From assembly GCF_053078305.1 (NCBI RefSeq), contig NZ_CP166879.1: DNA of 64,000 nucleotides; one strand, written 5' to 3'. Below the pieces are notes generated by a model, which worked only from the letters and a program-made list of their open reading frames with translations, was not told the DNA's origin and searched no databases. A program made the position numbers and the translations under genes. Each line of letters starts with the position of its first letter. Positions within the stretch are counted from its first letter, which is position 1. Shown piece after piece: positions 51,089 to 56,748 of this stretch.

Positions 51089-52003
51089 ATGATACTTGAT
51101 AAACTTTTATTCTTTACTGAAATCATAAATTCCGGTTCTATATCCGGCGCATCTAATTGCTTTAACATAAGCACTGCAACAGGTAGTCGTTGGGTAAAAG
51201 ATCTTGAAGATAAACTAAATGTTAAATTACTAAGAATCTCCAACAGAGGTATTGAACCTACAGAAGCAGGTATGGTTTTATTCAAAGAGTTTTCTTCTAT
51301 TAATGAAGACATAAATCAATTATATAAAAAGATAAATACCATAAACAATTCCAACAGTGGGGTTATTTCGATATCATCGACCCCATTATTTACAATGAAT
51401 TTTCTATCTACTATTATTGGTGAATATCTTTATAAATATCCTGACATACGTTTTCGCGTAGAGGAGTCACCAATTATTAATGAAAACAATAAAAATATTG
51501 ATTTTTATATAAAAGCATCGTCCACATATAAAGGACATATAGAAAATAATAGCGACTTAGTAAAAAAAGTGTTGTTCAGCTATCCATTGATACTATGCTG
51601 TTCTCCTGACTATATAAATAAATATGGAATACCCTCCAATCCATTCAGTTTAAAGCATCATAACTGTTTATACGCATCTTCTCTTGTTGGAGGGAATTGT
51701 TGGCATTTCTATATTCGTGATGAAATAACAACATTGGAAATAGCTAAAACAGTAAACATTGAAAATAGTGAGTTTTTAAAAGCAGTTGCACTAATGGGTG
51801 GGGGGATAGCATACTTACCATATCCTCTTGTTCAATCAGAAATACTGTCAGGAAAACTAGTATCAATAATGAATGATTATATTAAAACTCGTTTTGAAGT
51901 AAGTCTGTGGTTTAGGAAGCCCCTATCCTTGCGTTGTGTTACATTTAGGAATTTCCTAGTAGAAAGAGCCTCACAACTCAAGGATACTGTACAATTCAGA
52001 TAA
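51089..52003 (+). CDS. LysR-family transcriptional regulator (304 aa), divergent from the acyl-CoA cluster
   Basis: N-terminal wHTH (...SGSISGASNCFNISTATGSRWVKDLEDKLNVKLL) followed by a substrate-binding domain. Confidence 0.85.
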   Translation: MILDKLLFFTEIINSGSISGASNCFNISTATGSRWVKDLEDKLNVKLLRISNRGIEPTEAGMVLFKEFSSINEDINQLYKKINTINNSNSGVISISSTPLFTMNFLSTIIGEYLYKYPDIRFRVEESPIINENNKNIDFYIKASSTYKGHIENNSDLVKKVLFSYPLILCCSPDYINKYGIPSNPFSLKHHNCLYASSLVGGNCWHFYIRDEITTLEIAKTVNIENSEFLKAVALMGGGIAYLPYPLVQSEILSGKLVSIMNDYIKTRFEVSLWFRKPLSLRCVTFRNFLVERASQLKDTVQFR

Positions 52004-52176
52004 ATCACTTAACTTGATGCATCAATCACCCAGCGACCAGTTATGCTCATCATAATCATTATTCAGGTGTGAGCATAATGAGCATAACCCAGCGATCCAG
52101 ACAGGTTCCCTGAATCTCCAGACAACCAATATCAATTAAATAAGTGATAGTCTAAAAACTAGTCATTAGAGAACAG

Positions 52177-52442
52177 ATGATTGATGTCTTAGGGCCGGAG
52201 AAACGCGGACGGCGTACCACACAGGAAAAGATCGCTATTGTTCAGCAGAACTTTGAACCGGGAATAACTGTCTCCCTCGTTGCACGGCAACACGGTGTGA
52301 CAGCCAGTTATTTCTCTGGCGTAAGCAATACCAGGAAGGAAATCTCACTGCTGTGGCTGCTGGAGAACAGGTTGTTCTGGCCTCTGAGCTTGCTGCCGCC
52401 ATGAAGCACATTAAAGAACTCCAGCGCCTGCCCGGCAAGAAA
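52177..52442 (+). pseudogene. IS2 orfA (InsC), frameshifted and interrupted at 52442/52443
   Basis: [29 protein letters not shown]... The remainder is readable in a second frame ([15 protein letters not shown]). Confidence 0.8.
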
Positions 52443-53792
52443 TCTATGGTCCCCACCATTTTTGCAACACTGATTTTGATTGATGTTGGCTTGCCTAAAT
52501 CTATCCGGCGTCATTATGGGCATGGATGCCCGCGCCTCGATGAGTTCCGCACCTGATGAGCCCAAAAAACCATCCGGCTTCAGTGAGCCATTTTCTTGCT
52601 GAGGCTTTTCATCAGGCCGATATGCCGTTCATGTCATCAATAATCAGTCTTCGCAAAACCAGATTGGGAACTACTTTAATTCATGATTAACCTGCCAGCC
52701 AGATTGGCGCCATCGTTACCTTTCGAACACAGTCTGCTGTGTTGTGATTGCCCACGCTATCCGGGCTAATTTGTTGGCCAGTGCGCAACATACTACGCTG
52801 GAGTGTTTTCTTGCCAACAACGCCCTGACCCAATCCGCCAACCTTCCTGACTGATTCTCGATTCTCTGAATAAAGGATCTTGCGCACTGAACGAGTAACC
52901 GTCGCAGATTTTTATCTCCACGTTTACTTATCCCTAAAAGTGTATTTTTACCACCTGTGCTGTACTGCCGGGGTACCAGACCGGTTGAAGCAGCAAAGTC
53001 CCGACTGCAGCTATATTGTTTACCGTCTCCCAGCTGCGATGACAGTACGCTGGCGGTTATCGGACCAATACCGGGTATTGTCTGAAGACGTTGTCCTACC
53101 TCATCACGACTCAGTTCCTGCTCCAGTGCGATTTCAAGCTCGGTGATCTGTCCGACAAGATAAATATAATGGGCATGTAAGCGCATCAGTAACTGCGCCA
53201 GATAGGGAGGAAGTTCGTTCTCTGCAAGTACTGTTGAAAGTCGTTTTACCACTGCGACTCCTGTCGGCATACTGATGCCAAATTCCAGCAAAAAAGCATG
53301 CATCTGATTGGTCGTTTTGACTTTATCACTGACCAATGATTCCCTGGCCCGGTGAAGCGCCCGCATGGCCTGCTGAGCTTCTGTTCGTGGTTGCACAAAT
53401 CGCATGGAGGGACGAGATGCCGCTTCGCATATGGCTTCTGCATCGACAAAATCGTTCTTGTTGCTCTTAACAAAAGGGCGAACGAACTGCGGAGAAATCA
53501 ATTTTGCTTCATGACCTAAATCAGCAATCCGGCGAGCCATAAAATGAGCTCCGGCGCAGGCTTCCATCACAACGGTAGACGAGGCACAGCCTGCCAGAAA
53601 CTCAATAAGTTTGGTACGGGTAAACTTTTTACGCAGCAATACCTTGCCTGACTTATCTTGGCAGTGAATGTGAAAGGAATGCTTGCCAAGATCTATACCA
53701 ATAAGCGTAATGTTTTGCATGATGGTCTTCTCCATGAAAGAAAAACACTCTACTAGGGTACAGCTCACAGGGTGGTGGGGACCATCTCATTA
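52443..53792 (-). mobile_element. IS110-family element of the IS1111 type (~1350 bp) inserted in IS2 orfA
   Basis: The IS2 sequence resumes exactly at 53793. Subterminal 12-bp inverted repeats ATGGTCCCCACC (52446-52457) and GGTGGGGACCAT (53774-53785). 77 nt of non-coding sequence lies 5' of the transposase and 270 nt lies 3' of it. Confidence 0.75.
52716..53720 (-). CDS. IS110-family DEDD transposase/recombinase (334 aa)
   Basis: MQNITLIGIDLGKHSFHIHCQD... (N-terminal RuvC-like DEDD domain) and a C-terminal ...GLVPRQYSTGGK...LGISKRGDKNLRRLL... Start set at ATG 53720. Confidence 0.85.
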   Translation of the reverse strand: MQNITLIGIDLGKHSFHIHCQDKSGKVLLRKKFTRTKLIEFLAGCASSTVVMEACAGAHFMARRIADLGHEAKLISPQFVRPFVKSNKNDFVDAEAICEAASRPSMRFVQPRTEAQQAMRALHRARESLVSDKVKTTNQMHAFLLEFGISMPTGVAVVKRLSTVLAENELPPYLAQLLMRLHAHYIYLVGQITELEIALEQELSRDEVGQRLQTIPGIGPITASVLSSQLGDGKQYSCSRDFAASTGLVPRQYSTGGKNTLLGISKRGDKNLRRLLVQCARSFIQRIENQSGRLADWVRALLARKHSSVVCCALANKLARIAWAITTQQTVFER

Positions 53793-54428
53793 ACGATGGA
53801 AAATTAACTCATTAGAGAAGCCGTTGAATATTGGCGTGCAAAAAAGTGGATAGCGCACGCCCAATATTGCCCGGGAATGGGGAGTAAGTTTCGTCAGCCG
53901 TTATCTCCGTGTGTTGCGTGCGCAGTTGCACGTCATTCTCAGACGAACCGATGACTGGAAGGATGGCCGCCGCATGATACGGATGTTTATCTCCGTAATA
54001 ACATGGTGTACACCATGTTATCGGAGAGCTGCCCACGTATGGTTATCGTCGGCTGTGAAACAGTACAGGACGTCATGCTGGGAGCGGTAGAACACCGCTT
54101 CGGCAGCGACCTTCCTGCGTCTCCAGTGGAGTGCCTGACGGATAATAGTTCATGCTATCAGGCTAATGAAACACGCCAGTTCGCCCGGATGTTGGAACTT
54201 GAACCGAAGAACACGGCGGTGCGGTATCCGGAGAGTAACGGCATAGCAGAGAGCTTCGTGAAAACGATAAAGCGTGACTACATCAGTATCATGCCCAAAC
54301 CAGACGGGTTAACGGCAGCAAAGAACCTTGCAGAGGCGTTCGAGCATTATAACGAATGGCATCCACATAGTGCGCTGGGTTATCGCTCTCCACGGGAATA
54401 TCTGCGGCGGCGGGCAGTAATGGGTTAA
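53793..54428 (+). pseudogene. Remainder of IS2 orfA/orfB with a large internal deletion
   Basis: Sequence jumps from ...GGTTATCGTCGG directly to CTGTGAAACAGTACAGG... compared with remembered IS2. Only the C-terminal 141 codons of InsD are intact (54003-54428). Confidence 0.75.
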
Positions 54429-54499
54429 GTGATACCAGATGTCTGGAAATATAGGAGCAAATCCACCACGCATGGAGCCTGTTAAGACTCTCACTCTCA

Positions 54500-54763
54500 T
54501 CATTCTCCCTTCTGAGTCCCAACGAAACGACCAAAACGCTGAGTAAAGCGGGCAACATTGCCTTCTGATGCCACCGTTCTGAGTTTACCGGTATAGAACG
54601 GATGCGATTTGGAGGAAACGTCAATCGTCACATACGGATACGTCACACCATCCAGTTCAATCTCGCGATCTGTTTTGATGGTAGAACCTATTTTAAAGTA
54701 CTCATCCACACTCGTGTCATGGAACACTACTGTGCGGTATTCAGGATGGATATTTGGTTTCAT
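54500..54763 (-). CDS. ykgM: 50S ribosomal protein L31 type B (zinc-independent paralogue)
   Basis: [60 protein letters not shown]... This is an L31 sequence that lacks the CxxC zinc ribbon. Confidence 0.9.
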
Positions 54764-54776
54764 CTCTCTTCACTCA

Positions 54777-54791
54777 TGTTATAACATAACA
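54777..54791. promoter_or_regulatory. Zur box upstream of ykgM
   Basis: TGTTATAACATAACA matches the palindromic core TGTTATAwTATAACA at 14 of 15 positions. It lies 14-28 nt upstream of the ATG. Confidence 0.65.
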
Positions 54792-54952
54792 ATAAGATAC
54801 ATTCTCAGCTAGATCATTTCAACAGAATCCCCGAGCCCAAGGGTAATGTGGCATCGCAGCCTCTCATCAAATGGAAGACATGTGATTGCACATTTATCAT
54901 ACAAGACGTATGATAACACTGTGTTATTTATCCTGCTGCCGAGGGTATAGAT

Positions 54953-55195
54953 ATGAATAACGAATCTGAAAAAGCAATGTGGCGTTGTAAGCCTGTGGAT
55001 AATCCATGGACGTTGGATTCATTACTAAAAAAGACTATTTCTGCTGTTTTACCTGCATCAGACAAAGTTTCACACCAAAATAAAAACAAATTACGTAATA
55101 ATGAATTCATTAAAATTGAGCATCCATGCTCAAAGTCTGAATCCAGAATCGATGGTGACTACATCATTAGTGGAGGAACAGAATACCGTTTGTAA
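54953..55195 (+). CDS. hypothetical protein (80 aa)
   Basis: GAGGG SD and its own strong terminator. No motif recognised. Confidence 0.45.
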   Translation: MNNESEKAMWRCKPVDNPWTLDSLLKKTISAVLPASDKVSHQNKNKLRNNEFIKIEHPCSKSESRIDGDYIISGGTEYRL

Positions 55196-55242: not shown

Positions 55243-56748
55243 CTATTTTATACCTCGATTAGCAATACTTCCTGCACTCGAAGCTGCACCTTTCGCTTCC
55301 GAAATACCATTCGGTAATCCTCGACTGATTCCATCGCCAATATGAACACCAGCCCAGGACAACGCTCCCAGCCACACTGCCGGCAAGACGAGAAACATCG
55401 TCCCCATCACCAGATTCATTATCAGATCATCCGATGTGTTCTGGAATCCCATCATATTGAACCGGGTATGTGTATCCGAACTGTACAGCGCCGTCAGCAT
55501 CCAGCTGTCAAGCCACCGTGCAAGCTCCCACCAGAACGTCAGAAAGTGTACCGCAAACACCACAAACGTCAGTGTGATTAACGTCGACAGTTCATATGCC
55601 GCAAACGCCAGAATCAGCGGTATCATGATGTAAATCGCCATCAGTATTATCGACTGTACCATCGGCAGTGCCTGCCGCATTGCATCCAGTGCCGGAAACG
55701 CACCCAGTGCTGCTACCGCACTGCCCGCCGTTCCCGCAATCCGGGCCACCGCATTCATGGTCGTCATATCTGCATTGCCACCATAGCCACGATACACCTC
55801 TCCCCCCTGAGAGAGCGTCAGGTTTGCCGGACTCACCAGACGCTTGATCACCTCCTCCTTATAATCCACCTGACTACTGCCAATCATCTTCATTGCAGCT
55901 GACAGACGTAACCAGTAATGGTCACTGACCTCCTCCATGACCCGTTTTTTCAGCCCCACACTACTGTCACTCCACCACTCCCGGCATGTCGGATAGCCTC
56001 CCCGCCCCGTATCCGGTCGTCCGCTGTCACGTGCTGTATTCCACGGGAACGCAGCCCGCGGCATCTTTGACTGCAGCGTCCCGTAATCCCCCTGCATGAA
56101 TGTGGCGCTCCCTATCCAGGAGATATCATCAAGCACTTTTTTATCTTTACTCTGCCCCTGATCACGCTGTTTCCACATATACAGTGCCAGTGAATAACAG
56201 TCGTTCATAAAGTCCTGCAGCTCATCAGCAAGTGCCCTGTTTTCTATAAACGTTCGCTGGATCTCAAAACGCAACTGGCGCAAATCAGGCCGGCACGGAA
56301 TCGAAGCCACTGCCGCCTGGGTGACACCTTTCGACAATTTATGAACCACCACCCACCATACCGGGGCTGCAGCAGTCTGATCCCCTATACTGCTGATCAC
56401 CCCACTGTACCCCGTCTCTCCGGGCTCTTCAGGTGTCCATACCCCACAGGTCTGTGCCCTGGATTTATCGAATGACAGCGTATCCAGCGTCACCTGTACC
56501 AGAGGAACACAGCAGGATATCATCACAAAAAAAGCACCATAGAGAACATGCTCAATACGCGGCAGGGAAAGCATCCCTTTGTTTCCCTCATCCGCACCTT
56601 CTTCCCTGACTTTCAGCCAGATCCCGATGATCCTGAATGCCAGTGGCAGGGCAAACAGTCCTGTGCTGATCAACACATTCCACAGACCGTTATTCACCAC
56701 CCAGCCCAGCAGAGTCAGAAAATATTCCAGATAGTTATTTGTGGTCAT
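55243..56748 (-). CDS. ICE conjugal-transfer membrane protein with a TraG N-terminal-type domain (501 aa)
   Basis: Polytopic protein. The sequence is typical of the last large gene of MPF-G (ICEclc/pKLC102-type) T4SS operons as I remember them. Confidence 0.65.
   Translation of the reverse strand: MTTNNYLEYFLTLLGWVVNNGLWNVLISTGLFALPLAFRIIGIWLKVREEGADEGNKGMLSLPRIEHVLYGAFFVMISCCVPLVQVTLDTLSFDKSRAQTCGVWTPEEPGETGYSGVISSIGDQTAAAPVWWVVVHKLSKGVTQAAVASIPCRPDLRQLRFEIQRTFIENRALADELQDFMNDCYSLALYMWKQRDQGQSKDKKVLDDISWIGSATFMQGDYGTLQSKMPRAAFPWNTARDSGRPDTGRGGYPTCREWWSDSSVGLKKRVMEEVSDHYWLRLSAAMKMIGSSQVDYKEEVIKRLVSPANLTLSQGGEVYRGYGGNADMTTMNAVARIAGTAGSAVAALGAFPALDAMRQALPMVQSIILMAIYIMIPLILAFAAYELSTLITLTFVVFAVHFLTFWWELARWLDSWMLTALYSSDTHTRFNMMGFQNTSDDLIMNLVMGTMFLVLPAVWLGALSWAGVHIGDGISRGLPNGISEAKGAASSAGSIANRGIK

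Follow-up and report, generated by a model that had tools for sequence, protein, structure and literature searches.

What decides where a mobile element inserts, when it is found within one particular codon stretch of another transposon? The question is raised by a 64,000-nucleotide (nt) stretch of contig NZ_CP166879.1 (NCBI RefSeq assembly GCF_053078305.1; hereafter, the window), in which the orfA gene of an IS2-type element is interrupted by an insertion sequence at positions 52443-53792. A first-pass annotation of the window assigned the intruder to the IS1111 type of the IS110 family, and proposed that the non-coding tail downstream of its transposase gene encodes a guide RNA. The answer that we reach, with high confidence, is that this is an intact IS1111-type element whose tail would encode a guide (seek/bridge) RNA aimed at codons conserved among IS3-family transposases.

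The element is a complete insertion sequence of 1350 base pairs (bp) oriented on the minus strand, with its left end at 53792 and its right end at 52443. The two target halves, read on the plus strand, are GGCAAGAAA (52434-52442; codons G-K-K of the IS2-type orfA) and ACGATGG (53793-53799; codons T-M). The rejoined flanks read GGCAAGAAA|ACGATGG, an uninterrupted IS2-type copy reads GGCAAGAAAACGATGG, and over 3300 IS2-type copies on plasmids align with the rejoined flanks without a break. Because the joined flanks match an uninterrupted copy, the insertion was precise and duplicated no target sequence, and both the borders given by the first-pass annotation and the nesting within orfA are borne out. 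The sequence features that it listed were all found where it had placed them, with only small corrections. In element orientation, the order is a 7-nt left extension, TAATGAG (53786-53792, minus strand), a 13-bp repeat, ATGGTCCCCACCA, 52 non-coding nt, an open reading frame of 334 amino acids (aa), and 273 non-coding nt; a copy of the inverted repeat, counted within this tail, and the 3-nt extension AGA complete the element. The subterminal inverted repeat is perfect and occupies 53773-53785 on the left (TGGTGGGGACCAT) and 52446-52458 on the right (ATGGTCCCCACCA), where it forms the right end (52443-52458) together with the AGA extension at 52443-52445. Its presence had been recognized correctly, but its length is 13 bp, not 12 bp. 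Likewise, the layout of a short 5' and a long 3' non-coding region stands, but with 72 nt instead of 77 nt upstream of the transposase gene and 273 nt (52443-52715) instead of 270 nt downstream.

The transposase gene (52716-53720, minus strand) runs for 334 aa from an ATG codon to a TAA stop. Its product contains the DEDD (RuvC-like) N-terminal domain PF01548 (E 9e-21) and the C-terminal Transposase_20 domain PF02371 (E 3e-23), and it matches the NCBIfam model NF033542, “IS110 family RNA-guided transposase”, with 349.6 bits against a cut-off of 140. Residues 247-257, GLVPRQYSTGG, constitute the C-terminal GL-P----S(T)G motif defined for IS1111 (PMC11187229). The IS1111 family is further defined by subterminal repeats, extensions of 7 nt on the left and 3 nt on the right, a long downstream non-coding region, and the absence of target duplication (Siddiquee et al., PMC11187229). 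All of these were found here: the domains in a protein of the usual size (~330-350 aa), the motif, repeats in the range of 11-13 bp, the 7/3-nt extensions, the downstream non-coding region, and site- and orientation-specific insertion without target duplication. The element therefore belongs to the IS1111 group of the IS110 family, as the first-pass annotation had it. Most of the relatives described below whose ends can be located, indeed nearly all, have this 7-nt left extension. In three elements from Xenorhabdus/Photorhabdus (L015, L026, and L032), the left extension reads ATACAAG, not TAATGAG, after a common left flank, ...GATTAAAG; either this subgroup has a different left end or its boundary lies elsewhere.

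The element is not rare. Full-length copies at ≥98% identity number 65 in 5426 complete Escherichia coli genomes, an identical (100%) copy lies on a metagenome contig, and the exact transposase protein occurs on 211 public contigs. The closest named element found is ISSfl8 (so called in PGAP annotation and ISfinder-derived lists), with 79.9% transposase identity, followed by IS4321 (72.5%), IS1328 (72%), and ISEc11 (36%). With a protein identity below 80%, ISSfl8 is, on sequence grounds, a different element. The transposase peptides are absent from the ISfinder-derived supplement tables of Durrant et al. and Siddiquee et al. (2024). The 90% protein cluster has generic names and a loose “IS1328” label on one Yersinia member; we rejected IS1328 as a name for the element, given a protein identity of only 72%.

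The 3' non-coding region (52443-52715, minus strand) contains a scaffold at 52443-52662 that is conserved in alignments with relatives. In a three-way alignment of tails, taken from the window copy, from ISSfl8 (L001), and from a plasmid relative (L002), exactly two blocks within this scaffold vary; both match the flanks of their own element, and both lie within a hairpin at 52551-52618 (minus strand) closed by CCUGAUGA/UCAUCAGG. A closed structure of this kind had been noted around 52590-52599 in the first-pass annotation, and the compensatory changes described below and the layout of ISEc11 point to it as the target-binding hairpin (the seekRNA core, or target-binding loop). Guide block 1, GCAAGAAAAU (52590-52599, minus strand), is the right-target guide and would pair with top-strand T|TTTCTTGC. 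Guide block 2, AUGGUUUUUU (52564-52573, minus strand), is the left-target guide; it has the same sense as top-strand ATGGT|TTTCT and would thus pair with the bottom strand. Between them is a small central stem-loop, GGCUCACUGAAGCC (52576-52589, minus strand), for which compensatory AGCU..AGCU and GGCC..GGCC variants exist in relatives. In other words, two guides flank a small stem-loop, and both overlap on a fixed T-rich run.

If these blocks are guides, they should change with the targets. A scan of one genome per species yielded 80 relatives at 68-93% protein identity, and nearly all of those with locatable ends share the same end structure and have diverse flanks. In every relative, the 5' block reverse-complements the right flank together with the final 1-2 bases of the left flank, and the 3' block copies the final 5-6 bases of the left flank and continues with the T-run. 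We measured this with a register-free longest exact match and a permutation of the target assignments among 27 distinct guide pairs. With its own target, an element shares a longest match of 7.7 nt per block on average, against 4.6 and 4.7 nt for the targets of other elements, and none of 100,000 permutations reached the observed sum (417 against 256 ± 10.5). Identity to the window copy is 70-93% in the scaffold columns and 22-83% in the guide columns. The same dependence is visible at close range: in two relatives of ~90% identity, L095 (metagenome contig AGFS01101911.1) and L006 (Yersinia pekkanenii), the guides differ from those of the window copy by 1-3 nt and the targets have changed correspondingly. 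The guides of L095, GCAUGAAAAU and ACGGUUUUUU, are each one base away from those of the window copy, and its target, CCCCACGGT|TTTCATGC, differs at the bases that correspond to these changes. (L095 and L006 share a target family of their own, GTGCCCCAC(GG/AC)T|TTT(T)CATGCTCTCC, which is unlike the target in the window.) As a positive control, the blocks of IS4321/IS5075-type members (1327 bp), AAAACGGAAA and UAUUUUC, fit the known target in the Tn21 inverted repeat. The segment ATTTTCTTGC at 52590-52599, which had been proposed as a target-recognition segment, is therefore confirmed in that role, as its block tracks targets across relatives.

The fold itself is also constrained. In an alignment of 36 sequences, the structure tested (the closing stem, the target hairpin with its outer stem, inner stem, and central stem-loop, and a second stem-loop) pairs in 96.4% of cells, with compensatory changes at 14 pairs; in controls in which the pairing partners were slid by 1-3 columns, the figure falls to 27-42%. 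In the outer stem of the hairpin, for example, UA has become CG in 11 sequences and AU has become GC in eight. Folding of the whole tail alone gives a z-score of -1.76, which is uninformative by itself. The proposal that the tail encodes a guide RNA is thus supported by two blocks that track the targets and by stems that covary.

We suggest the following course of events. The element entered a decayed IS2-type orfA between GGCAAGAAA and ACGATGG, in a fixed orientation and leaving no duplication. Transcription of the 3' non-coding region would run in the sense of the transposase gene, presumably by read-through or from a promoter at the circle junction, and the product would fold into a guide RNA ~170-220 nt long. 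As its first module, this RNA would have the hairpin at 52551-52618, whose guide blocks flank the small stem-loop, overlap on the fixed T-rich core, and follow the top-then-bottom-strand order of IS1111 seekRNAs. The DEDD transposase and the RNA would then recombine the circular element into DNA that matches the guides, and a second module (52497-52544), built likewise, would probably read the left and right termini as a donor-binding loop. That the RNA is made, that the transposase binds it, and that a promoter arises at the junction are points that we infer from the sequence. The RNA has been found to be made, co-purified, and required for transposition in ISEc11, ISKpn4, ISPa11, and ISPst6 only (PMC11187229), and a junction promoter has been documented for ISEc11 (PMC11187229). 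In the element described here, the putative -35 hexamer TTGCAA lies at 52462-52467 (minus strand), and joining the right end to the left end would give TTGCAA, 17 nt, and GATAAT, an arrangement that would exist only in the circular form. The stretch TTGCAAAA is invariant in all 36 aligned relatives, which fits the expectation for a junction promoter as in ISEc11.

Several observations weigh against this interpretation. A promoter search found no internal promoter upstream of the hairpin. A scan of 51500-55000 with Rfam 15 (E up to 10) found no relevant family: its four matches belong to unrelated families, all far below their gathering scores, and the only one that overlaps the tail is to a snoRNA model (52585-52635; 15.6 bits against 44). 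Guide block 2 is mismatched at the IS2 site that is actually occupied (ATCGT|TTTCT), with one mismatch and one G-U wobble. Lastly, judged from the window by itself, a 9-nt match of tail to target is no more than marginally unusual (P ~0.06): such a match occurs in 5.5% of 2000 dinucleotide-preserving shuffles, and in 7% if the left junction is also allowed. The caution in the first-pass annotation that matches this short could arise by chance was justified, and it is the comparative data that decide.

The second module poses a question of its own. The block/stem-loop/block build of the target hairpin is repeated 3' of it, as CUCAUCG (52538-52544, minus strand), a covarying stem-loop (52507-52536, minus strand) in which GGCG..CGCC encloses GGGCAU..AUGCCC, and GGAUAGAUUU (52497-52506, minus strand). 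The inner stem of this stem-loop has compensatory changes, such as a CG pair replaced by GC in 10 sequences and by UA in three. Within the first block, CUCAU reverse-complements left-end positions 3-7, ATGAG, which makes it a putative right-donor guide; GGAUAGAUUU corresponds to the right-end terminus ATAGA followed by the T-run, which makes it a putative left-donor guide. In ISEc11, the homologous segments are UUACAU, which reverse-complements that element's left end, ATGTAA, and GGAUAUAAA, beside a right end of ATATA|AA; IS4321-type elements have AUAGAUUC at the homologous place and a right flank that begins with TTC. From these comparisons, we think it rather probable that the module at 52497-52544 reads the element's own ends as a donor-binding loop, in the manner of a bridge RNA.

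The chief competitor, which we take seriously but consider somewhat improbable, is a seekRNA with a single loop: the first hairpin would read the target and the target-derived flanks, 52497-52544 would be a protein-binding scaffold or a stem, and the transposase would read the ends through the subterminal repeats. It agrees with the finding that an 82-nt seekRNA alone supports ISEc11 transposition and that the donor flanks must carry target sequence. CUCAUC and GAUAGA are, moreover, invariant and able to pair, and RNAalifold joins UCAUC to GAUAGA in an invariant internal stem; the candidate donor segments do not vary within the clade, so there is no covariation there. The putative right-donor guide also stays the same where the left end of a relative is TAATGAT or TAATGTG, so that left-end variants, three in all, go uncompensated in the RNA, and the donor-loop reading is drawn from one comparison across families (ISEc11) and one variant within the clade (IS4321-type). 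On the other hand, the second module has the block/stem-loop/block build of the first, and its two flanking segments differ in step with the ends between ISEc11 (UUACAU with ATGTAA; AUAUAAA with ATATA|AA) and the clade of the element described here (CUCAU with ATGAG; AUAGAUUU with ATAGA|TTT), with UUC in IS4321-type elements where the flank begins with TTC. Donor-complementary loops have also been described in IS1111 bridge RNAs by Durrant et al.

If the donor-binding loop exists, its left-donor segment has a peculiarity. The candidate AUAGAUUU equals the right-end terminus plus the T-run, and GGAUAGAUUU matches the integrated junction ATAGA|TTT at eight of eight positions, against six of eight for the simple circle junction ATAGA|TAA. 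We offer only tentatively, as a rather doubtful possibility, that in the clade of IS4321, ISSfl8, and the element described here, GGAUAGAUUU reads the right terminus together with the target-derived T-run, the same T-run being encoded again in both target guides, so that a fixed T-rich core of 3-4 nt would be written three times in the RNA. Were this true, it would explain why TT(T) stands at the crossover in nearly every target of the clade, the second loop would act on the integrated junction too (in excision, or in a handshake after strand exchange) and not on the circle alone, and the system would differ mechanistically from IS621, with its 2-nt CT core.

We consider it very unlikely that the first hairpin is merely a terminator or stabilizer of the transposase mRNA and that the protein picks the target, the matches being products of chance in A/T-rich sequence. 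The central stem-loop and the adjoining U-run were indeed flagged as terminator-like, and the match within the window alone has the P of ~0.06 given above. However, a terminator does not need two blocks that change in step with the flanks, which no permutation reproduced; the terminator-like stem has only five pairs and lies inside a larger covarying hairpin, and the homologous RNA of ISEc11 is required for transposition and reprograms it. The terminator-like site itself (52575-52590, minus strand) might terminate a shorter RNA species between the guides, or it might be a by-product of the T-rich core. Least credible of all is the proposal of the first-pass annotation that the second recognition segment, beside 52590-52599, is CCATCGTTA at 52710-52718 (UAACGAUGG on the minus strand, across the stop codon), since, although both 9-nt matches exist and this one equals the right junction between element and flank on the plus strand, the region matches its own junction no better (mean 4.95 nt) than those of other elements (5.06 nt), L033, L007, and L042 keep GGTAACGA[TC]G at the stop codon despite unrelated targets, the block at 52564-52573 tracks the left target half in every relative, and validated IS1111 seekRNAs hold both matches within one short RNA. 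We regard this match as chance; on the comparative evidence, the second guide is AUGGUUUUUU (52564-52573), on the 3' side of the same hairpin.

With a guide RNA as the preferred reading, which target do the guides prefer? A comparison with other insertion sites, as the first-pass annotation had recommended, shows that other copies of the element (L003, L084-L087, and L091-L100) occupy the same codon position, in the same orientation, in IS3-family orfA genes, among which at least three clearly different host sequences can be distinguished. The consensus of their targets is GG(C/T)AAGAAA|AC(C/G)ATGGAA. The 3' guide matches ATGGT|TTT exactly, and the IS2 site in the window (ATCGT) has one mismatch. 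Because the guides fit GCAAGAAAACCATGG better than the IS2 site, the preferred target appears to be GCAAGAAAACCATGG, the G-K-K-T-M codons of IS3-family OrfA, of which the IS2 site is a one-base variant; GCAAGAAAACCATGG is accordingly predicted to be a more efficient target than GCAAGAAAACGATGG. No additional target site and no additional copy of the RNA turned up when the window was searched for them.

Two groups of copies have peculiarities. In a pAA-type plasmid lineage in which the element adjoins aggR (L003, L087, L091-L094, L096, L098, L099, and L102), the copy is frameshifted and 1349 bp long. Its right junction, AGA|TTCTTGCCC, is one T short of that in the window copy, L084, and L085 (AGA|TTTCTTGCC), a difference that could reflect slippage of the T-run core, an insertion offset by 1 nt, or a homopolymer sequencing error. 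In L103 (metagenome contig Ga0192259_1023), an extra TAGA lies between the right end and TTTCTTACCC, and the apparent length of 1619 bp suggests an internal insertion.

RNA guidance of IS110-family elements has been known since 2024, and the NCBI annotation pipeline already names the protein family “RNA-guided transposase”; the element is an ordinary new case of that mechanism. The most instructive comparison is with ISEc11, whose seekRNA was validated by co-purification with the transposase and by reprogramming (Siddiquee et al. 2024, PMC11187229), and whose sequence (L089) we obtained by tblastn with the published protein. ISEc11 shares the subterminal repeats, the 7/3-nt extensions, the downstream non-coding region, and the absence of duplication. 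Its hairpin, GACUCAC..[CAGUAUUUU][GGGCUUGAAGUCC]GCC[GUGAAAAUAA]..GUGAGUC, has the same build, with a top-strand guide before a small stem-loop and a bottom-strand guide after it. Also common to both are a second module with a GCCGGAUA motif and, close to the right end, a -35 hexamer, TTGCAA. The ISEc11 transposase is only 36% identical, its length is 1443 bp instead of 1350 bp, and its target is GTGAAAATACTG instead of GCAAGAAAAC(C/G)ATGG; its RNA has been shown experimentally, whereas that of the element described here is predicted from sequence.

Nearer relatives show how one scaffold serves different targets. ISSfl8 has an RNA scaffold of 90% identity and the same right terminus, but its left extension is TAATGAT instead of TAATGAG, and its guides, CAGAUGAAA and GGGGAUUUUU, correspond to a target, AGTGGGGA|TTTCATCT, in a DUF4942 gene. 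The copy that we used lies in such a gene on the chromosome of E. coli Z247 (L001, 1505-2861), and ISSfl8 is present in ~190 E. coli records. “Tail-only” matches in ~190 E. coli genomes were considered as orphan copies of the guide RNA and rejected: they are the tails of full ISSfl8 elements, which seem orphaned because the coding part is too diverged for megablast and the tail is ~87% identical to that of the window copy. IS4321/IS5075 (1327 bp) has the same ends, RNA scaffold, and guide layout, but its guides, AAAACGGAAA and UAUUUUC, match TTTATT|TTCCGTTTT, in the terminal repeats of Tn21-family transposons. In the IS110 group, IS621 (Durrant et al. 2024; Hiraizumi et al. 2024) also uses a DEDD recombinase guided by an element-encoded RNA; however, that RNA lies upstream of the gene with its guides in the order left then right, not downstream with right then left, and IS621 has a CT dinucleotide core and subterminal repeats of 2-3 bp, in contrast to the T-rich core and 13-bp repeats found here. 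ISEc21, also of the IS110 group, is RNA-guided and has a conserved segment of IS3-family transposase genes as its natural target; it differs in its group, in its upstream RNA, and in the conserved stretch that it targets.

What is new here is the exact guides, scaffold, and preferred target of an element common on E. coli plasmids and chromosomes. Together with ISEc21, which came first, the element would make two natural cases of RNA-guided insertion into a conserved coding stretch of IS3-family transposases, and its choice of target would explain its repeated nesting in IS2-like elements near virulence genes such as aggR. A site of this kind is a safe harbour, and insertion there also inactivates another transposon. 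As a more speculative reading, the element may be a parasite specialized on IS3-family transposons. The ~27 naturally retargeted relatives on one scaffold might provide a design table by which IS1111-type recombinases could be reprogrammed.

The surroundings can be described briefly. The host IS2-type element (~52090-52442 and 53793-~54440) is decayed, at ~91-93% identity to typical IS2 copies; its orfA shows frameshifts as well as stop codons, and its orfB part is represented only by a 141-aa open reading frame (54003-54428), a reduction that suggests internal deletions. From their translations alone, the neighbouring open reading frames resemble a LysR-type regulator (51089-52003, plus strand), ribosomal protein L31 (54500-54763, minus strand; 87 aa), and a multi-pass membrane protein (55243-56748, minus strand; 501 aa).

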